Shown here in pieces: positions 1,186-31,097 of a stretch of DNA of 64,000 nucleotides. The first letter of the stretch is position 1. Every line of letters starts with the position of its first letter. The notes beneath the pieces were generated by a model. The model was not told where the DNA came from. It searched no databases and was given only the letters and a program-made list of their open reading frames with translations. The position numbers were made by a program, and so were the translations under genes. The DNA comes from a virus (taxonomy: Duplodnaviria; Caudoviricetes), in the IMG/VR virus record IMGVR_UViG_2684623237_000002, positions 8,215-72,214 of that record. The stretch is one strand, 5' to 3'.

Positions 1186-1767
1186 ATGGAAGTTAAGGCC
1201 AAGGCTGCATTGAGTGTCAGTCCTCGTGGTGGGCAAATAGTTGTATTTACATTGGTTTTCTTTTCTGCTGCATTCTTGTTTGTAGCTATTTGGCTTCACT
1301 CCCAGAATCAAAATTTCATCATTGCTGTCTGCGGGGCGATTGTATTTTTCGCTGCGGGCGGCTTGTTTTGGTGGGTTTCGCATAAAAATGAAGAGTTGAA
1401 GCAGTCTCATCCTTTTAATCTGAATTTGGGAGAGGGTGATAATGGCTTGATTTTAAGTGCGGATGTTCGAGCTTTGCCGCAACTGGAATATGTAAAGGGC
1501 TTGCTATCTCATTACTCCTCCGTATTTCATCGGGAACCGCTACCTATGGCGGACGGAATGATTGGTGAATCTGGTGAACTGATAGAAGGTAGAGTTGAAG
1601 AAGCAAACAACGTCGTACAGAAAGCTAATGAGCAGGCCAGGGCCCAGTGTGATTTATTGATGCAGGAATTATTAATTGGTGCTGAATCAAGATTACACTC
1701 AAAACTTCATGTCGTATCGAATGTACCACCCACGATCGATTTAATAACCCCAGTCTCCAACAGCTAA
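1186..1767 (+). CDS. Moron gene 2: two-TM membrane protein
   Basis: GGAG RBS then ATG 1186; two hydrophobic helices then a soluble domain; AT-rich. Confidence 0.75.
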   Translation: MEVKAKAALSVSPRGGQIVVFTLVFFSAAFLFVAIWLHSQNQNFIIAVCGAIVFFAAGGLFWWVSHKNEELKQSHPFNLNLGEGDNGLILSADVRALPQLEYVKGLLSHYSSVFHREPLPMADGMIGESGELIEGRVEEANNVVQKANEQARAQCDLLMQELLIGAESRLHSKLHVVSNVPPTIDLITPVSNS

Positions 1768-3845
1768 GCGGCTTTGATAACTACAGCCAGCTTTTGCCAT
1801 GGATCGTTGGCCCGAGCTAAGACAGCCATCGGCGGTGGGCTTACGCTGTTGCCGCACATGTGCACCTGTTGTGTCTTGGTGAACGGCTTGCCGTCGGCGC
1901 CGTGGCTGATGATGTAATCAGCGGGGAAGCCCTGAGCCTTGTACAGCTCGGACGGCTTCAGCATCCGCAGGCAGATGTCGACGATTACGTAGGGGGTTCC
2001 CTTGACCATCACGGTGACCATTGCCAGGCGGTCCTTGGTGGTGATCGTCGGCGCCGGCGAATCGCAAGCGCTGATGTTCTCGGTACCGTAGTAGCTGATC
2101 AGGAAAGCGGCTACGCGGAGGGCACCGGCTTCGTGCTCAGGCGATAACGTGAGCGAAACCAGCGAGCTCTTGCCGCCGCCACCGGCAGTAATGGTCGGCG
2201 CCGGTTCTTCCAGGCCCTGACCAATGCTGCCGCCGAATGCTCGCTCCATGAATGCGCTGACCAACCCGTGGTGCTGGCCACCGGCGCTGACGGTGTGCAG
2301 CGGGTCATTGACGTCCCGGGCATCGCAGTTGCCGCGCAAGTGCACCAGGTTCGCCGCCACCAGCTGTTGCTGGCTGCCGGTGTTGGTCACCGTGGTCATC
2401 GGGTCCTCGATGCTCTTGGCGTCGGTGGTGTTGAAGCCACCATTCATCTGGGCCATGAACACCGTGGAGATGCCCATAGCGTGGGCAGCCCCGGCCGGGC
2501 GCTGATAGTTGCCGCCGCTGGTGATGGTCGGCAGTGGCTCGTCCAGCGCCTTTCCCGCGTCATCAAAGCGAAACTTCACCAGATGCGCCGCTGCGATCGC
2601 GCGGTGGTTCTGTGTCGTGACTGTACCTGTCGGCTGGTCGACGCTCACCGGCTTACCGGAATACTCTGGGCCGCCCGCCCCAACCATCAACGGGCTGATC
2701 AGCGTCAGCTCGCCGCGATTCGCGCACGTTACCGTGGGCAGAGGATCAAGCGGGTCATTGATACGATCGCTGCCCTGATGCGTTGCCGGTGCGATGATTG
2801 GGCTCACCACCGAGAAGGCGCCGCCCTTTGGGTAGGAGGTGATGGTGCGCAGCGGCTCGTCTGCCGATTGCACAGTCTCGCCTGACCAGTTGGCAATCGG
2901 CACAATGAACGGCGCCGCGCTATCGATGACGAACTTCTTCATGCCCTTGGCAACACGGCGCAGGGTGGCCGGGGCCAGGTCTTTCTTGCGGCCGAAAATG
3001 CTCTTGCCCAGGTCGGTGAAGTCGATGCAGTCAGCGGCGGTTTTCCACTTTTGCTGACCCTTAACGGGGTTCTTGGCGTGGGTTGGCTCCGGCCACACAA
3101 TCGGCTCGCCGTCGCACCTGGCGATCATGAACAGGCGTTCCCGGCTGGTCGGCGCGCCGAAGTCGCAAGCCTTGATGACTTTCCATTCAACGACGTAACC
3201 CATGCCCTCCAGCAGCGCCACGAAGCGGCGCCAGGTGCGGCCGCGCTGCTTCGGGTCAGGCACCAAGAACTGGTTGGAAACCGGAACCTGTTCGCCTGGC
3301 GCCGCCACTCGGTTGGTAGTCGCGCCCTTTTTGGTTGGGTGCGGAATCTGGTCAAGGGTCACCACGCGGCCGGTGGCCTTGTCGCGCTTGGCGATCAACC
3401 GGCCCCACTGCAGGATCTGTTTCACGTTCTCTAGGCTGATCACCCTGGGCCGCTTCATGCCTGCCCACTTGAGGCCGATCCACGACAGGTTGCGGATCTC
3501 ACGCTTGCGCGGTTGCCCGCCGGCCGCCTGGCTGTGGTGCGTGCAGTCCGGTGACATGTGGAACCAGCCGACGGCCTTGCCGCCACACTCGGTGTCAGGG
3601 TCACCCTCGAACACGTCGGTGGTGAAGTGCTGGGCGCCTGGGTGGTTCATGGTGTGCATGCTGATCGCTTGCGGACTGTGGTTCTTGGCGACGTTCACCG
3701 CGCGGCCCAGGCCGATCTCCAGGCCGGTACCGGCACCACCACCACCGCAGAAGAAGTCGACAACGATCTCATCGTCCTGAGGGTTGAAGCCGAGTCCGTA
3801 TTGGGTTTTGAAATCGAAGGGGTGTTTCTTCTGTTGTGCGGACAT
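1764..3845 (-). CDS. Phage DNA (cytosine-5) methyltransferase with expanded repeat-containing variable region
   Basis: Motif I DFFCGGGG, catalytic SPDC, ENV, RERLF, C-terminal CGNSV. Confidence 0.93.
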   Translation of the reverse strand: MSAQQKKHPFDFKTQYGLGFNPQDDEIVVDFFCGGGGAGTGLEIGLGRAVNVAKNHSPQAISMHTMNHPGAQHFTTDVFEGDPDTECGGKAVGWFHMSPDCTHHSQAAGGQPRKREIRNLSWIGLKWAGMKRPRVISLENVKQILQWGRLIAKRDKATGRVVTLDQIPHPTKKGATTNRVAAPGEQVPVSNQFLVPDPKQRGRTWRRFVALLEGMGYVVEWKVIKACDFGAPTSRERLFMIARCDGEPIVWPEPTHAKNPVKGQQKWKTAADCIDFTDLGKSIFGRKKDLAPATLRRVAKGMKKFVIDSAAPFIVPIANWSGETVQSADEPLRTITSYPKGGAFSVVSPIIAPATHQGSDRINDPLDPLPTVTCANRGELTLISPLMVGAGGPEYSGKPVSVDQPTGTVTTQNHRAIAAAHLVKFRFDDAGKALDEPLPTITSGGNYQRPAGAAHAMGISTVFMAQMNGGFNTTDAKSIEDPMTTVTNTGSQQQLVAANLVHLRGNCDARDVNDPLHTVSAGGQHHGLVSAFMERAFGGSIGQGLEEPAPTITAGGGGKSSLVSLTLSPEHEAGALRVAAFLISYYGTENISACDSPAPTITTKDRLAMVTVMVKGTPYVIVDICLRMLKPSELYKAQGFPADYIISHGADGKPFTKTQQVHMCGNSVSPPPMAVLARANDPWQKLAVVIKAA

Positions 3846-7772: not shown

Positions 7773-8761
7773 TATGCCGCCTCCTCTGCCTGGGACTGGT
7801 CGCCGTTATGGCCGGTCATATCTGTAAAGTCGGCATCGACGGTCGCCGCCATGGCTTTGAGGGCTTCGTGGCACTCCAGCCCGATTGCTGCACGTTGCTT
7901 TGGCTTGAGACCTGCCCATGCTGCCGCATAGGCCTCGATGTCCTGCTGCTTCGCGACGACCAGTAGGTCTGCGAAAACACCGTCAATTTCTGGTGAGGGG
8001 GATTTGGGGCCAAACGAAACGCCAGCAGCGGCAGCAGTATTTGCAGCATGCTTGGTAGGAGTGATGTCGATCTCGCCACCGTATGAGTCCTCGAATTCGT
8101 CGGGCGTGTAAACGCCGAGGATCACGTCAGGGCAGAAGAGGCGGGCCCATTTTTTTGTCACCAAGTAGGCGATCTGTTGCTTCGGGTCTTCCGCCCAAAG
8201 TGTGGAGTTGCGTGTGCGAACCTGGGTAAGCAGAAGCTCCAAAACCCGCGGCTCATCTTCGCCCTTGAAGGTCGCCCAGACTTTAATGCCGAGCCCTTTC
8301 TCATCATCAAAACTCCAGGCTGGAACGCGGTATTTTTTAAACTCGCCGGTGTCCTCGTCCTTCTTCGTTTTGCTGGTGACTTCGCGCATCTTCCCGATGA
8401 CGTTTTCCCAAGCGCCGAACCATTCAAAATTCAATCGACCTTTGACTGGTGCCTTGGCGGTGATCACTGCATTAACGAGCTGCGCCTCATAGCTCAAAGC
8501 GCCACCGTTGACGATGAACGTCTTCTGCGCGACAGCGAAGGGATTCATCTGCCACTGCATGGCCTGCAGTACTACAGCCATGCAGTCGGCTTGATTGCCC
8601 TTCAGGTGTTTTGGCACTGTGGTAACACCCTTCGACATCATCATCGCCAGGTCGCTCATCGACCTCATGGTGCCTGGGTCGAGTATGAGCGCCGCGGCGT
8701 TGTGCGATGGATCGTGGTACGTGGCGATGCCGGTTTGTGCTTGTGTGTCTGATTCGTTCAT
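7772..8761 (-). CDS. recT: RecT family single-strand annealing protein
   Basis: VPKHLKGNQADC...QWQMNPFAVAQKT...W...PKQQ..Y...WARLFCPDVILGVYTPDE; adjacent to exonuclease. Confidence 0.88.
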   Translation of the reverse strand: MNESDTQAQTGIATYHDPSHNAAALILDPGTMRSMSDLAMMMSKGVTTVPKHLKGNQADCMAVVLQAMQWQMNPFAVAQKTFIVNGGALSYEAQLVNAVITAKAPVKGRLNFEWFGAWENVIGKMREVTSKTKKDEDTGEFKKYRVPAWSFDDEKGLGIKVWATFKGEDEPRVLELLLTQVRTRNSTLWAEDPKQQIAYLVTKKWARLFCPDVILGVYTPDEFEDSYGGEIDITPTKHAANTAAAAGVSFGPKSPSPEIDGVFADLLVVAKQQDIEAYAAAWAGLKPKQRAAIGLECHEALKAMAATVDADFTDMTGHNGDQSQAEEAA

Positions 8762-26924: not shown

Positions 26925-27386
26925 ATGGCAGCCCTGAACAGTGAGGTGAAAGGCTTCATGGTTCAGGCCTTGGCGTGCTTCGACACACCTTCCCAGGTTG
27001 CAGCGGCTGTCCGAGAGGAATTCGGCATTGAGGTGACCCGTCAGCAGTGCGAGGCGCAAGACCCGACCAAGCGCGCCGGCCGAGATCTGGCAAAGAAGTG
27101 GGTGACCCTTTTCCACGACACCCGTAAGCGGTTCCGTGAAGAGACAGCTGACATCCCGATCGCCAACCGCGCCTTCCGCCTCCGCGCCATGAATCGCTTC
27201 GTGGAGAAGGCCGAGACGATGAAGAACATCGGTCTGGCCATGCAGATCCTCGAACAGGCCGCGAAAGAAACCGGTGACATCTACGTCAACCGGGCACGGA
27301 AAGAAGAGGCTGGCGATGAACCGGTGATCCCGACCCGCATTCAGGTCGACGTGGTGGATGCGAGGAAGCCGAATGCCGAGCCTTAA
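26925..27386 (+). CDS. terS: Terminase small subunit (DUF2280-like)
   Basis: QALACFDTPSQV..AV.EEFG, PIANRAFRL; directly upstream of terL. Confidence 0.8.
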   Translation: MAALNSEVKGFMVQALACFDTPSQVAAAVREEFGIEVTRQQCEAQDPTKRAGRDLAKKWVTLFHDTRKRFREETADIPIANRAFRLRAMNRFVEKAETMKNIGLAMQILEQAAKETGDIYVNRARKEEAGDEPVIPTRIQVDVVDARKPNAEP

Positions 27387-29682
27387 CGTTCCGCAATCGC
27401 AGTTCCTCCTGTTACCGCACAAGTTTCGTGCATTCGTTGCCGGGTTCGGGTGCCTGCGAGGAAGCACCCTGGTTATGACTGAGTCTGGGCCTATGCCCAT
27501 TCAGGAAATCGATCGGCCAATGCGCGTTCTATCGTGGTCGGCTGCGAATGATCGATTTGAGCTTGCTCTAAGTGGTGGCGCGTACCCAAAAGGTGCGGCG
27601 ACGCTATTCCGAGTCGTGACGCAGCGAGGAGAATTTGTAGCAAGCGGACATCACCGCGTTCTCTGCGCTGACGGTAGCTATCGACGCGTGGATATGCTGG
27701 TCTCAGGTGAGATGGTATCTGCATCTTCGCAAAGCCTTCTTCAGACCAATTTGGCCGAAGTCCCGAAATCGTGGCACGCAGGTGATCAGCATTCGAATCA
27801 AAGACTCGCAGATTCACTGGGTCGTTATGCAGATGAAGCCCGTCGATATGGTCAACAACTTCTGACGGAAGCAGGTATCGGCCAATCTTCTGCTCGGCAA
27901 TCAGCCGATGCTGGAACATCAAGCCAGTCTTCCTTGCTTGAGGGTGGTCGGCCGGAGCCTGGACTAGCGCATAGCCATCCAGGTCGACAATTCTGCCTGC
28001 TTGGTAGCTGTGGTTCAGTTCGCCAAGCCGTCCTCCGCGACTCAGTCGATCTGCGTTGTGAGTCCTCAGGGTGTTCTGCACATGCTTGTCGCTGCACCCG
28101 AGAAGGCCAGCAATCTCTGCAGATGTCCGATTCTCTCCTGCAAGGGCAAGAATCTCCTGCTTCAGGCTGGATCGAGGCGCAGGCTTCGCTCGCTGCTTCA
28201 GCTTCAGGTTGTACCGCTCAATGCAGCGATAAACATGGCTGCGCTCGCACCCTGCAAGCTTCGCAACTTCTGATGCGCTGCGATCAGGCTGGGCAAGATC
28301 ACAAATTTTCTGGTCTAGAGGCGTCAAATAATAGCTCCGCAATCGAATCCTGCTACATTTTAAGCGTTGTCGCACTCGATGTGGTAGAGACTTACTACGA
28401 CCTGCAGGTGCTGGATAACAACTGCTACGTGACTGTCGATGGGGCTATCCATCACAACAGCGGCAAGACCTGGGTCGGATGCTCGGCACTGAGCAAGCAC
28501 TTCATGGAGTGGCCCGGCGTTAACGCTGGCTACTTTGCACCGACTTACCCGCAGATCCGGGACATCTTCTATCCGACCATGGATGAGGTGGCCTACGACT
28601 GGGGGCTGAAGACCAAGATCAACCAGGCGAACCACGAAGTTCACATCTACAGCGGCCGGCAGTACCGCGGCACTGTGATTTGCAGGTCGATGGAGAAGCC
28701 GCAGACGATTGTCGGTTTCAAGATTGGTCACGCCCTGGTTGATGAGCTGGACGTGCTGACTGCCATCAAGGCTCAGCAGGCCTGGCGCAAGATCATTGCC
28801 CGTATGCGCTACAACCTTCCGGGGCTGAAGAACGGCGTGGACGTCACCACGACGCCAGAAGGCTTTAAGTTTGTCTTCCTGCAATTCGTGAAGCAGTTGC
28901 GCGACAAGCCGTCGCTCAAGGAAATGTACGGCCTGGTGCAGGCCAGCACGTTCGATAACGAGCTGAACCTGCCGGATGACTACATCGCCTCCCTGATGGA
29001 GTCGTATCCGCCGCAGCTGATCATGGCGTACCTCAAAGGCCAGTTCGTCAACCTGACGTCCGGCACGATCTACACGGCCTACGACCGCAAGCTCAACGGC
29101 TGCTTCGACACTGTGCTGCCCGGCGAGCCGCTGTTCATCGGGATGGACTTCAACGTAGGCAAGATGGCGGCGATTACCCATGTTAAGCGTGACCAGGGGC
29201 TGCCCAGGGCCGTGGATGAGCTGATCGACGGCTACGACACGCCCGACATGATCCGCCGCATCAAAGAGCGCTACTGGCAGCACGACGGCAATGACTTCAA
29301 GAAGACCTGCGAGATCAGGATCTACCCAGATGCCTCGGGCGATTCGCGCAAGTCCGTGAACGCCAGTATCACCGATCTGGCCATGCTCAAGCAGGCCGGC
29401 TTTGCGGTCATCGCTCCCGCGGCAAACCCGCCGGTGAAGGACCGAATCAACGCAATGAACGCCGTCTTCTGCAATGCGCAGGGCGAGCGCCGCTACCTGG
29501 TCAATTCGCTCACCTGTCCGACCTACGCCGATGGCCTGGAACAGCAGGTGTGGGGCACGAACGGGGAGCCAGATAAAACCGCCGGCATCGATCACGCGAA
29601 CGACGCCGGCGGCTACTTCATCCACCGCGAGTACCCGATCATCAAACCGGTCACCGCTATCAAAATGGGATACGCCCGATGA
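27373..29682 (+). CDS. terL: Terminase large subunit interrupted by an intein
   Basis: Walker A GFG|SGKT split by insertion; Walker B LVDELD; TTTPEG; nuclease GMDFN, YPDASG, DHANDA. Confidence 0.93.
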   Translation: MPSLNVPQSQFLLLPHKFRAFVAGFGCLRGSTLVMTESGPMPIQEIDRPMRVLSWSAANDRFELALSGGAYPKGAATLFRVVTQRGEFVASGHHRVLCADGSYRRVDMLVSGEMVSASSQSLLQTNLAEVPKSWHAGDQHSNQRLADSLGRYADEARRYGQQLLTEAGIGQSSARQSADAGTSSQSSLLEGGRPEPGLAHSHPGRQFCLLGSCGSVRQAVLRDSVDLRCESSGCSAHACRCTREGQQSLQMSDSLLQGQESPASGWIEAQASLAASASGCTAQCSDKHGCARTLQASQLLMRCDQAGQDHKFSGLEASNNSSAIESCYILSVVALDVVETYYDLQVLDNNCYVTVDGAIHHNSGKTWVGCSALSKHFMEWPGVNAGYFAPTYPQIRDIFYPTMDEVAYDWGLKTKINQANHEVHIYSGRQYRGTVICRSMEKPQTIVGFKIGHALVDELDVLTAIKAQQAWRKIIARMRYNLPGLKNGVDVTTTPEGFKFVFLQFVKQLRDKPSLKEMYGLVQASTFDNELNLPDDYIASLMESYPPQLIMAYLKGQFVNLTSGTIYTAYDRKLNGCFDTVLPGEPLFIGMDFNVGKMAAITHVKRDQGLPRAVDELIDGYDTPDMIRRIKERYWQHDGNDFKKTCEIRIYPDASGDSRKSVNASITDLAMLKQAGFAVIAPAANPPVKDRINAMNAVFCNAQGERRYLVNSLTCPTYADGLEQQVWGTNGEPDKTAGIDHANDAGGYFIHREYPIIKPVTAIKMGYAR
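27451..28458 (+). mobile_element. Intein (336 aa) in TerL Walker A
   Basis: Block A CLRGSTLVMT, block B FVASGHHRVL, block F TYYDLQV, block G NCYVTVDGAIHHN then Ser+1; removal restores AGFGSGKT. Confidence 0.92.
27491..28327 (-). CDS. HTH-HTH-HNH homing endonuclease encoded antisense inside the intein
   Basis: Two HTH repeats (SASEVAKLAGCERSHVYRCI; TSAEIAGLLGCSDKHVQNTL), GELNHSYQAGRIVDLDGY, HRLIAEQKIGRYLLPSEVVDHIDGLHLHNDPVNL; GGAG RBS 7 nt before TTG 28327. Confidence 0.85.
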   Translation of the reverse strand: MTPLDQKICDLAQPDRSASEVAKLAGCERSHVYRCIERYNLKLKQRAKPAPRSSLKQEILALAGENRTSAEIAGLLGCSDKHVQNTLRTHNADRLSRGGRLGELNHSYQAGRIVDLDGYALVQAPADHPQARKTGLMFQHRLIAEQKIGRYLLPSEVVDHIDGLHLHNDPVNLRVFDSNADHLRATISGLRPNWSEEGFAKMQIPSHLRPAYPRVDSYRQRRERGDVRLLQILLAASRLGIASPHLLGTRHHLEQAQIDHSQPTTIERALADRFPEWA

Positions 29683-31097
29683 GCAACGACGTCTCCTTCA
29701 AGCGGGCGGAATACACGGCAGTGCTGGATCGCTGGGCGACCGTTCGCGACGTCTGCGCGGGCCAGCACCGGGTAGTCGATCGGCTGCCGTACATCAACGC
29801 GCACGACAAGTCGCCGGAGAACGAAGATCGGAACCGGGCTTACCGCGAGCGAGCGGTGTTCAAGAACGCCACCGGGCACACCCGTAACGGGCTGCTGGGT
29901 CTGGCCTTCCATAAAGACCCGACACTCACGGTGCCAAAGAAGCTGGAATACCTGCAAGACAACGCCAACGGCTCCGGAGTGAGCATTTACCAGCACTCCC
30001 AAGGCACGCTGGAGAAGGTGCTTGAAGCTGGGCGCCACGGTCTGTACGTCGACTATCACCAGGACGACGGCATCGGCGGTCACTCGGTGATCCTGTCCTA
30101 CTGCGCGGAAGACATCATCAATTGGCGCACGGGCATGGTTAACGGCCACAGCGTGCTGACGCTGGTGGTACTGCGCGAGTCTCCGGAGATTCCTGACGGC
30201 TTCGGCTACAAGACGGCTGAGCAGTACCGGGAACTGGCGCTTGAGGATGACGGGTTTGTTTGTCGTGTTTGGCGCCGGTCCGGCCCGAAAGGTGGCGGGC
30301 CGCTGGCGGTCATCGAAGAGTTCAGGCCGGAAGGCGTCACCGGGCGTCTCAAGGAGATCCCGTTCACCTTCGTCGGCGCGCAGAACAACGACCCAAGCAT
30401 CGATGAGTCACCGCTCTACGATATCGCCATGATCAATCTGGGCCATTACCGGAACAGCGCAGATTACGAAGACAGTGTCTTCTGGTGTGGCCAGGCCCAG
30501 CCATGGATCAGTGGTTTGGATGAGCAGTGGCGCGACTGGATGGAGAAGCACGGTGTCTATGTCGGCTCCAGGGCGCCAATGATGCTGCCGGCCGGCGGCC
30601 AGTTCGGCTACGCGCAACCCCAGCCGAACACGCTGGTTAAGGAGGCCATGGCCGACAAGAACCAAATGATGATCGAGCTTGGCGCCCGCATGGTCGTTGC
30701 GTCTCTGTCCTCAAAGACGGCAACCGAGGCGCGCGGTGACCAATCAGCGTCCACATCGGTGCTGGCCGGGTGCGTGGCGAACGTGAGCGAGGCCTACACC
30801 CGGGCGATCATGTGGTGCTGCGCCTACATGGGCATTGCTGACAAGAAGATCGCCTACCAAGTGAATCAGGAGTTCGTCGAGCTGACGGCTGATCCGCAGA
30901 TGATCACGGCTTTGGTTGGCTTGTGGCAGCAACGCGGCTTTGCCAAGGCAGACCTTCGGGCCTACCTGCGCAAGCTGGGGCTGATCGCGCCAGAGCGTAC
31001 AGATCTGCAGATCGACGGTGAACTGGAAGAGCAGGGCGACGGCCTGGGCCTGGATGACGAGGACAAACCAAATGGCGGTAAATCCGGCAGTACTTGA
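29679..31097 (+). CDS. Portal protein (DUF4055-like)
   Basis: Follows terL; Y.ERAVFKN.TG.T, PLYDIAMINLGHYRNSADYE. Confidence 0.88.
   Translation: MSNDVSFKRAEYTAVLDRWATVRDVCAGQHRVVDRLPYINAHDKSPENEDRNRAYRERAVFKNATGHTRNGLLGLAFHKDPTLTVPKKLEYLQDNANGSGVSIYQHSQGTLEKVLEAGRHGLYVDYHQDDGIGGHSVILSYCAEDIINWRTGMVNGHSVLTLVVLRESPEIPDGFGYKTAEQYRELALEDDGFVCRVWRRSGPKGGGPLAVIEEFRPEGVTGRLKEIPFTFVGAQNNDPSIDESPLYDIAMINLGHYRNSADYEDSVFWCGQAQPWISGLDEQWRDWMEKHGVYVGSRAPMMLPAGGQFGYAQPQPNTLVKEAMADKNQMMIELGARMVVASLSSKTATEARGDQSASTSVLAGCVANVSEAYTRAIMWCCAYMGIADKKIAYQVNQEFVELTADPQMITALVGLWQQRGFAKADLRAYLRKLGLIAPERTDLQIDGELEEQGDGLGLDDEDKPNGGKSGST

Follow-up and report, generated by a model that had tools for sequence, protein, structure and literature searches.

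How could an intein remain mobile when the frame that it shares with its host gene encodes no nuclease? This question is raised by terL, the gene of the large terminase subunit (TerL), in a stretch of 64,000 nucleotides (nt) from a virus of the Caudoviricetes (IMG/VR record IMGVR_UViG_2684623237_000002, positions 8,215 to 72,214), called here the window. In this gene a contiguous intein interrupts the Walker A loop, and a separate gene for an HNH endonuclease lies inside the intein on the opposite strand. A preliminary description, made from the letters of the window alone, had read the locus as a composite selfish element. The analysis of the window and its relatives supported this reading, since a contiguous intein and a separate reverse-strand HNH gene were found with both frames maintained. 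We consider it probable that the locus constitutes a mobile unit, complete in itself and about 1 kb long, that codes on both strands, with an intein on the plus strand and an HNH homing gene on the minus strand.

A complete intein splits the Walker A loop of TerL

The plus-strand open reading frame (ORF) of 774 amino acids (aa) was identified as a terminase by the Pfam families Terminase_6N (E 6.9e-25, aa 368-574) and Terminase_6C (E 8.1e-6), and by phrog_2 and phrog_10250, both labelled 'terminase large subunit'. Within it, residues 32-367 are bounded by FVAGFG/C and HHN/SGKT (junctions are marked here by a slash). The first of these residues is C32 (27451-27453), directly after FVAGFG, and the last is N367 of the motif HHN (28456-28458), directly before SGKT. 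The insert therefore corresponds to 27451-28458 and splits the Walker A loop, interrupting TerL between G31 and S368 (GFG/SGKT).

The splicing blocks SGHH (B) and YDLQV (F) were both found in the sequence, so that the full set first described for this loop (C32, SGHH, YDLQV and HHN/S) was recovered. The insert shows the features of a class 1 intein, namely a Cys nucleophile as first residue, the His of block B, the Asp of block F, an HN end and a Ser at position +1. Furthermore, C1, H68 (block B), D317 (block F), H334, H335 and N336 were invariant in 49/49 aligned inteins from related loci, and the Pfam profile Intein_splicing matched 26/52 related TerL ORFs at E <= 0.001 (best 2.1e-16). A group I intron was considered for the same position and rejected, with no Rfam match at E <= 1 in 27200-28700 and a host frame that is open throughout.

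The AlphaFold2 model of the intein reached a pLDDT score (predicted local distance difference test) of 88-98 at residues 1-90 and of 92-98 at residues 297-336. When this model was searched with Foldseek, 26 matches at E <= 0.001 were obtained, all of them inteins or related Hint/BIL domains. Mini-inteins ranked best, the NpuDnaB mini-intein (4o1r) at their head (E 1.2e-6, root-mean-square deviation (rmsd) 1.6 Å over 97 columns). The part between these two ends had been described as a filler rich in Ser, Gln, Ala and Gly and free of nuclease motifs. Pfam found no nuclease domain in the plus frame of the intein, and the four residues together made up 47.8% of intein residues 96-296 vs 24.1% of the C-extein. 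A nuclease fold, which had been named as a possible outcome for this segment, was not obtained either, 140 residues, mainly 156-295, having a pLDDT below 50. The plus-strand middle is thus predicted by the model to be a largely disordered loop between the two halves of a mini-intein.

An HNH gene with its own start signals is nested in the intein

The minus strand carries an open frame at 27491..28375, of 294 aa if begun at the GTG at 28375, from which the HNH residues are numbered here. The order HTH-HTH-HNH (HTH, helix-turn-helix) that had been read from this strand was borne out, HTH_29, HTH_23 and HNH_3 all exceeding their Pfam cut-offs (for HNH_3, E 3.7e-6 and 26.9 bits vs a cut-off of 24.8). 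Additionally, phrog_10730 'HNH endonuclease' matched residues 65-292 at E 7.7e-54. The HNH_3 domain was found in 49/49 HNH relatives (best E 2.3e-12), and H156, E172, V173, V174, D175, H176, D178, N184, N188, N195 and H198 were invariant in the same 49/49 proteins. We take D175, H176, N184, N188, N195 and H198 to have catalytic roles.

The HNH stop codon lies 40 nt inside the first codon of the intein, and the TTG at 28327 sits 131 nt inside its last codon. Both ends fall inside the intein boundaries and the HNH gene is therefore nested wholly in the intein. As had been stated from the sequence of the window, its ORF runs on across the N-terminal splicing domain, with 27494-27735 shared by the two.

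The TTG at 28327 was taken as the start (278 aa) because it is preceded by GGAG at 28338-28335 and lies at an offset of 131 nt, and because the GTG at 28375 has no Shine-Dalgarno motif. An in-frame start with GGAG, GAGG or AGGA ending 3-12 nt upstream was observed in 43/51 non-redundant loci, and the first start preceded by such a motif was ATG in 42 of those 43. In 33 loci this start is placed 128 or 131 nt from the C-terminal end of the intein, and the TTG of the window at 131. Taken simply, the first start codon of the ORF had the motif in 33/48 cases vs 6.5% of internal positions. The two start signals that had been proposed, GGAG and the hexamer TAAAAT (the reverse complement of 28357-28362), are thus both present, the latter without a -35 partner by the rule of the scan.

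The AlphaFold2 model of HNH had a mean pLDDT of 88.3, with 92-97 in the C-terminal helical domain, and its core comprised strands at 173-176 and 189-192 followed by a helix at 195-203. Comparison of this model by VIA-align yielded weak rows only, to HTH domains at a Z score of about 6 and to I-HmuI at Z 5.4. No match to the whole model at E <= 0.001 was returned from the PDB by Foldseek. A 'CAP repeat' row at E 6.1e-11 in the profile search of PDB sequences was disregarded, since it had 0 passing stretches.

Both reading frames are maintained

The claim that both frames are stop-free and that their wobble positions do not coincide held in every respect. Codon positions 1, 2 and 3 of HNH fall on TerL positions 1, 3 and 2. 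HNH position 3 is therefore on TerL position 2, HNH position 2 is on TerL position 3, and the two wobbles are kept apart. From this register it was derived that a TerL stop arises wherever an HNH codon NTT, NCT or NTC precedes one that begins with A. Over the length of the HNH ORF, 0 stops were counted in the TerL frame, and 8 and 14 in the other two antisense frames. When synonymous codons of the HNH ORF were shuffled, the TerL frame acquired 8.4 stops on average, and when the codon order was shuffled, 11.3, with 0/5000 stop-free sequences in each case. Since the TerL frame is free of stops far beyond these shuffles, the open TerL frame is maintained. The frame relation was identical in the window and in the phages Taid, Amona and PHS3, for which stop-free synonymous shuffles numbered 2/5000, 8/5000 and 0/5000, respectively.

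To read the selection on each frame, the mean pairwise diversity per HNH codon position was calculated from a codon alignment of 51 non-redundant sequences. Over HNH residues of about 78-217, position 1 showed values of 0.25-0.46, position 2 of 0.15-0.40, and position 3 of 0.52-0.70. The HNH wobble is thus the most variable position in the centre, which is the signature of purifying selection and indicates that HNH is the selected frame there. The same site is TerL codon position 2, and hence the TerL-frame peptide is not conserved in the centre. R131, G134 and L137, nearly invariant in the plus frame, stand opposite the invariant EVVDHID codons of HNH, and their near-invariance is read as a by-product of the constraint on that motif.

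A different pattern was observed in the last ~75 HNH codons, which lie over the N-terminal splicing domain. All three positions were low here (0.24-0.51), and in the final block the TerL wobble was the highest (0.42 vs 0.30-0.32), which points to constraint of these codons by both proteins in the aligned sequences. This pattern, read from codon-position diversity and not from a formal overlap-aware dN/dS, matches the selection pattern that had been predicted, the minus frame being selected centrally and both frames being constrained at the N-terminal end.

The C-terminal helical domain of HNH is conserved across lineages, but in two distant relatives, L098 and L093, the HNH ORF ends 71 and 49 codons before the start of the intein and the C-terminal tail is absent. 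Not every member thus has HNH overlapping the N-terminal splicing domain, and this overlap may be a later extension.

The layout recurs in related phages

A tblastn search with HNH against 50,697 phage records returned 30 records, nine of them with E <= 4e-47. These strong hits came from seven Pectobacterium phages, from Dickeya phage Setonix and from Pseudoalteromonas phage PHS3. When IMG/VR was searched with an alignment of four HNH proteins, 272 stretches were found to encode a relative. The best 80 of these 272 and 16 genome contigs, all fetched by HNH similarity, form the 96 loci used here.

In 95 of the 96 loci the corresponding antisense frame had 0 stops over the HNH match, and the other two antisense frames had 1-25. 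Only L099 departed from this pattern; among the hits it is the weakest, its match covering 61 residues. The open stretch measured about 650-1330 aa in loci not ended by a contig edge, and 439 aa in L076. The HNH match itself was without a stop in 94/96 loci. In the two others, L016 and L017, a single stop lies upstream of an ATG at 3037 that has a Shine-Dalgarno motif.

The junction HHN/[ST]GK[ST] was present in 89/96 loci, and both junctions (G/C and HHN/[ST]GK[ST]) in 89/98 sequences, namely the window, L001, L003 and 86/95 loci, with L099 left out. The inteins so delimited were 283-360 aa long. The nine sequences without both junctions comprise four cut by a contig end (L014, L018, L063 and L079), one shorter intein (L040) and four distant loci (L094-L097). 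Among these last four, three show Intein_splicing directly before the terminase domain, and L097 has terminase domains only, from residue 350. The 89 sequences contained 70 distinct HNH-frame segments, 51 of which remained below 90% amino-acid identity to one another.

Public annotations do not reflect this layout. In Taid (L001) and Amona (L002) a 754-aa plus-strand ORF at 1420-3684 holds a 232-aa antisense HNH ORF; TerL is annotated as a 'hypothetical protein' and the antisense HNH is unannotated. In PHS3 (L003, KX912252.1) a continuous 708-aa TerL ORF extends over 1715-3841 of the minus strand, through the HNH gene, and the annotation gives TerL from 1715 to 2890 only, with HNH as a free-standing gene. 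In all, TerL is matched over the whole intein by eight records of Pectobacterium/Dickeya phages, one of which has no annotation. The words 'intein', 'HNH' and 'endonuclease' had 0 occurrences in the paper on the Ymer genus phages (PMC11445585).

Insertion site and distribution

Pseudomonas phage Medea1, whose TerL is 89% identical to that of the window, has neither the intein nor HNH and reads an uninterrupted GFG-SGKT. The DNA alignment with Medea1 breaks at 27449 and resumes at 28462, which marks an exact insertion. The intein is included in 8 of the 938 phage records with a related TerL, these being the records that cover 80% or more of the TerL query, and its distribution is therefore sporadic. 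HNH was never found without this intein in 95 loci or nine phage records. Mini-intein or in-frame relatives were not found in the phage collection, where a search with the N-terminal splicing domain returned the same nine HNH-bearing records only.

The same P-loop position is occupied in different terminase families, Terminase_6N (22/52) and Terminase_3 (17/52 scanned ORFs), with neither family at E <= 0.001 in 13/52. By blastp the C-exteins formed clusters of 47, 36, 1, 1 and 1 members. HNH identity was as high as 61% between extein clusters and as low as 40% within one. Incongruence between HNH and exteins, suggested by these identities, was rejected on the basis of the HNH tree described below. 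The intein of the window is 88-98% identical to those of L004 and L005, their exteins being 69-79% identical, a gap that would agree with the intein having spread more recently, as judged from these sequences.

Contigs of the runs X1 and X5 have no listed differences from the window over 27000-28577, and one X5 contig has none at all over 27000-28231. From 28578 onward, X1 differs from the window at 65 positions. Recombination seems to have ended here, no more than about 120 nt downstream of the intein (28458-28578), which would be consistent with co-conversion or with phage mosaicism.

Proposed mechanism and alternative explanations

The anatomy, the selection on both frames, the conserved catalytic residues, the initiation signals, the exact insertion and the sporadic distribution were observed here, and splicing, HNH expression, the target site and homing are inferred. 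The element sits in the Walker A loop of TerL, with the codon for G31 on one side and that for S368 on the other. terL would be translated straight through it; the first ~95 and last ~40 residues of the inserted polypeptide would fold as a Hint domain, and the ~200 residues between them, which are the stop-free antisense reading of the HNH gene, would form a disordered loop. Protein splicing would remove the 336 residues and restore the P-loop GFGSGKT. Because nine cultured phages carry the layout, the TerL precursor must presumably mature. A minus-strand message would serve for the HTH-HTH-HNH_3 protein, with translation initiated at a Shine-Dalgarno motif and start codon of its own that lie about 130 nt inside the C-terminal end of the intein. 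In co-infection, or on the encounter of a superinfecting phage with a prophage, this protein would cut or nick terL alleles that lack the intein, at the P-loop codons or close to them, and repair would copy the whole unit of ~1 kb into the intein-free allele (homing). Selection would act on HNH in the centre and on both proteins at the overlap with the splicing domain, the TerL frame being elsewhere merely stop-free. An origin by invasion of a mini-intein by a free-standing HNH gene is plausible.

Several results weigh against this two-strand element. When profile models were run on both strands, as the preliminary description had suggested, the minus strand gave HNH_3 above its cut-off, but Intein_splicing scored 16.2 bits on the TerL of the window, under the curated cut-off of 35.8. 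The low pLDDT of the plus-frame middle could come in part from poor alignment of an unconstrained region. The likeness of HNH to I-HmuI (PDB 1u3e) is weak, both in structure (VIA-align Z 5.4, 80 residues, rmsd 3.2, 25% identity) and in sequence, when a profile of the HNH alignment was compared with the PDB (E 0.16, not significant). A promoter, as the -10-like hexamer would suggest, was not recovered, a consensus scan of 27200-28800 giving 0 promoter-like sites; 0 terminator sites were found in the same scan. Two RNA runs of raw reads under the same species label had no reads over 27000-29800, a result that carries no weight for or against expression, and contigs of two further runs attest only the presence of the DNA. 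The HNH tree (50 rows, quick method) requires 3 changes of extein label, the minimum being 2, and one extein cluster forms a single clade with 99% support. No pair among the loci combined an intein DNA identity >= 85% with a C-extein identity < 60%. With so few label changes and no such pair, recent jumps between terminase families are not shown; switches appear from the tree to have happened but to have been rare. Finally, the higher identity of the intein relative to the exteins of L004 and L005 could stem partly from extra constraint on the dual-coded stretch.

Could HNH instead be a decaying passenger, left in an intein that still splices but no longer expressed or active in the window, as late in the homing cycle? 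The scan for promoters would agree with this, as would the start codon, TTG or GTG in the window vs ATG in 42/43 relatives with a Shine-Dalgarno motif, and the case of L040, which is without the HTH part and the HNH start region and still has an open TerL frame. However, the HNH ORF of the window is full length and retains all the residues invariant in 49/49 proteins, its TTG has GGAG at the conserved offset, and the family-wide codon-position pattern is that of purifying selection on the HNH frame; decay is therefore unlikely to describe this locus. Still less probable is an HNH that serves the phage, for example as a terminase-associated enzyme for DNA cleavage in packaging. Its place inside terL would suit such a role, and HNH genes beside terminase genes are common; according to PMC3592412, many phages have genes for enzymes of this kind adjacent to those of the terminase. 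Nevertheless, Medea1 does without both intein and HNH at 89% TerL identity, the intein is included in no more than 8/938 related records, and no HNH stands apart from the intein in the 95 loci or nine phage records. Moreover, an architecture of HTH and HNH_3 domains is typical of homing enzymes.

The annotation of PHS3, with a truncated TerL coding sequence and a separate HNH coding sequence, would suggest a fractured gene, in which two TerL polypeptides are joined in trans by a split intein with a free-standing endonuclease gene between them. This arrangement is exceedingly improbable, since the TerL frame is continuous in the window (774 aa), in PHS3 (708 aa) and in 95/96 loci where ~8 stops would be expected, and no internal start or stop structure is present; what Dassa et al. 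(PMC2677866) report, in the accessible part of the paper, are GIY-YIG and Vsr-like genes and not an antisense HNH. The probability that base composition opened both frames by chance is close to nil. The GC content is moderately high (0.55-0.57), in favor of such an origin, but in PHS3, with only 42-45%, the shuffles gave 0/5000 stop-free sequences as they did in the window, and both frames are open in 95/96 loci; these shuffles and open loci already refute a compositional origin.

Within the reading as a two-strand mobile element, we propose only tentatively, and with some doubt, that the antisense layout is a stable, selected design and not a frozen accident. The C-terminal, DNA-binding-like domain of HNH and the N-terminal domain of the intein share ~240 nt on opposite strands, so that neither could easily be deleted without harming the other. 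If this idea were true, nuclease and splicing element would be locked as one inseparable unit, and the decay of the endonuclease would be slower, which would explain the 94/96 HNH matches without a stop. Placed antisense, the nuclease would also be timed independently of terL with its late expression, and terL could be modulated by the transcript of HNH.

The locus has further implications. The element is missed or misread in public records, and wherever a gene caller does not allow nested antisense genes, one of its two genes will always be lost. With 272 IMG/VR stretches encoding a relative, it offers many natural examples of long dual coding in antisense, in which three selection regimes adjoin: one frame selected, both selected, and one merely stop-free. 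It also supports the view that inteins gain nucleases by invasion of free-standing endonuclease genes, and the cultured phages of the Ymer genus and PHS3 provide tractable systems for testing it.

Coordinates and additional features

The features of the locus are collected in Table 1. The gene upstream of terL, at 26925-27386, has a counterpart in Medea1 annotated as a DUF2280 domain-containing protein and is presumably the small terminase.

Table 1. Position of terL, its intein and the nested HNH gene in the window
Feature	Coordinates	Strand	Remarks
TerL precursor gene	27358..29682	+	774 aa + stop; ORF unbroken through the intein
N-extein, aa 1-31	27358..27450	+	closes with AGFG, the opening half of Walker A
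Class-1-type Hint intein, 336 aa (C1 ... HHN), then S+1	27451..28458	+	
N-terminal splicing domain, intein aa 1-95, blocks A-B	27451..27735	+	predicted beta strands
Intein linker, the plus-frame reading of the antisense HNH gene	27736..28338	+	stop-free, S/Q/A/G-rich
C-terminal splicing domain, intein aa 297-336, blocks F-G	28339..28458	+	opposite strand: HNH translation-initiation region
C-extein: SGKT of Walker A, remaining ATPase domain, nuclease domain	28459..29679	+	
HNH homing-endonuclease gene, 278 aa from TTG at 28327	27491..28327	-	stop codon 27491-27493
First helix-turn-helix, HNH aa 33-58	28202..28279	-	HTH_29 E 1.4e-8; helices 34-41, 45-55
Second helix-turn-helix, HNH aa 68-111	28043..28174	-	HTH_23 E 1.4e-7; common to all relatives
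HNH_3 catalytic core, HNH aa 156-192, EVVDH motif	27800..27910	-	H176, N184, N188, N195, H198
HNH C-terminal helical domain, about aa 214-294	27494..27735	-	antisense to the intein N-terminal splicing domain
GGAG Shine-Dalgarno motif	28335..28338	-	7 nt before the TTG start

Some related loci differ from the window in their architecture. TerL ORFs with a second insertion, of 942-1127 aa, were observed in three loci. The insertion lies downstream of the intein with the antisense HNH. It shows as an in-frame LAGLIDADG_3 region at about aa 581-643 in L077 (467-3841) and L080 (485-3865), both on the minus strand, and as another Hint domain at about aa 768-899 in L038 (1031-3856). Two inteins that differ in type seem to be present in each of these terminases. 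In L095 (2-3997, minus strand) a 1332-aa open stretch contains Terminase_3 and then P22_portal in one frame, an apparent read-through from TerL to portal in a metagenome-assembled contig that may be an assembly or frame artefact. The HNH frame of L040 (2995-3504, plus strand) is reduced to 170 open codons, with the HTH region and the usual start site lost, and its TerL frame (1658-3655, minus strand) is open over 666 aa with an intein of about 224 aa. Judged by its sequence, L040 is likely a decaying endonuclease on its way to a mini-intein.

Comparison with known systems

The comparisons that follow refer to the accessible parts of the papers cited. The preliminary description knew of no characterised example of this arrangement, although it allowed for mention in intein surveys; its estimate of novelty was too high, as antisense LAGLIDADG and VSR-like homing endonucleases in contiguous inteins, TerL inteins included, have already been described by Gosselin, Arsenault and Gogarten (bioRxiv 10.1101/2025.01.02.630785) among 63 actinophage inteins with non-canonical endonucleases. 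The same preprint credits the antisense LAGLIDADG of the Synechocystis DnaX and Chloroflexus SpoVR-like inteins to Gorbalenya 1998 and Gogarten 2002. Those actinophage inteins share with the present one a contiguous intein, an endonuclease ORF inside it on the opposite strand and an open extein frame, some of them in TerL, and their authors likewise infer that a free-standing endonuclease gene invaded an intein and that the two continued to move as one unit. They differ in the nuclease, which is LAGLIDADG or VSR-like where it is antisense, HNH being listed in frame only in the part of the preprint at hand, whereas here HTH domains are combined with HNH_3. Their hosts are actinophages, and here the carriers are Gram-negative and environmental phages. 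The insertion into Walker A in members of the Terminase_6N and Terminase_3 families, the ~240-nt overlap with the splicing domain and the abundance of the element also set the present case apart. In the literature searched, an intein with an antisense HNH was nowhere described, the supplementary tables of 10.1101/2025.01.02.630785 and subscription papers lying outside the scope of this search.

Two further systems are close in one respect each. Dassa et al. 2009 (PMC2677866) described split inteins with free-standing GIY-YIG or Vsr-like genes, one of them at a terminase locus. In those fractured genes a separately translated endonuclease gene is likewise found where the endonuclease domain of an intein usually sits, but two ORFs are spliced in trans, and here the host ORF is continuous and HNH antisense. 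Arsenault et al. 2025 (PMC11855218) reported the ShiLan-type insertion in a phage DNA methylase, a hidden out-of-frame HNH. It shares with the present element an HNH in another frame of an insertion that is stop-free in the host frame; it is without a detectable splicing domain in the described part, whereas a complete Hint domain flanks the HNH here.

Canonical endonuclease-containing inteins resemble the element in their Hint splicing domain, their insertion in a conserved catalytic motif and their presumed homing cycle, but they carry the nuclease domain in their own frame, where none is found here. I-HmuI, which is intron-encoded, has in common with the HNH of the window an HNH_3-type core joined to accessory DNA-binding modules, the match being weak, and differs in domain order, the HTH domains being N-terminal here and followed by a C-terminal helical domain. 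HNH is to be added to the nucleases known antisense in inteins, within a layout whose concept had already been published for LAGLIDADG and VSR-like enzymes.

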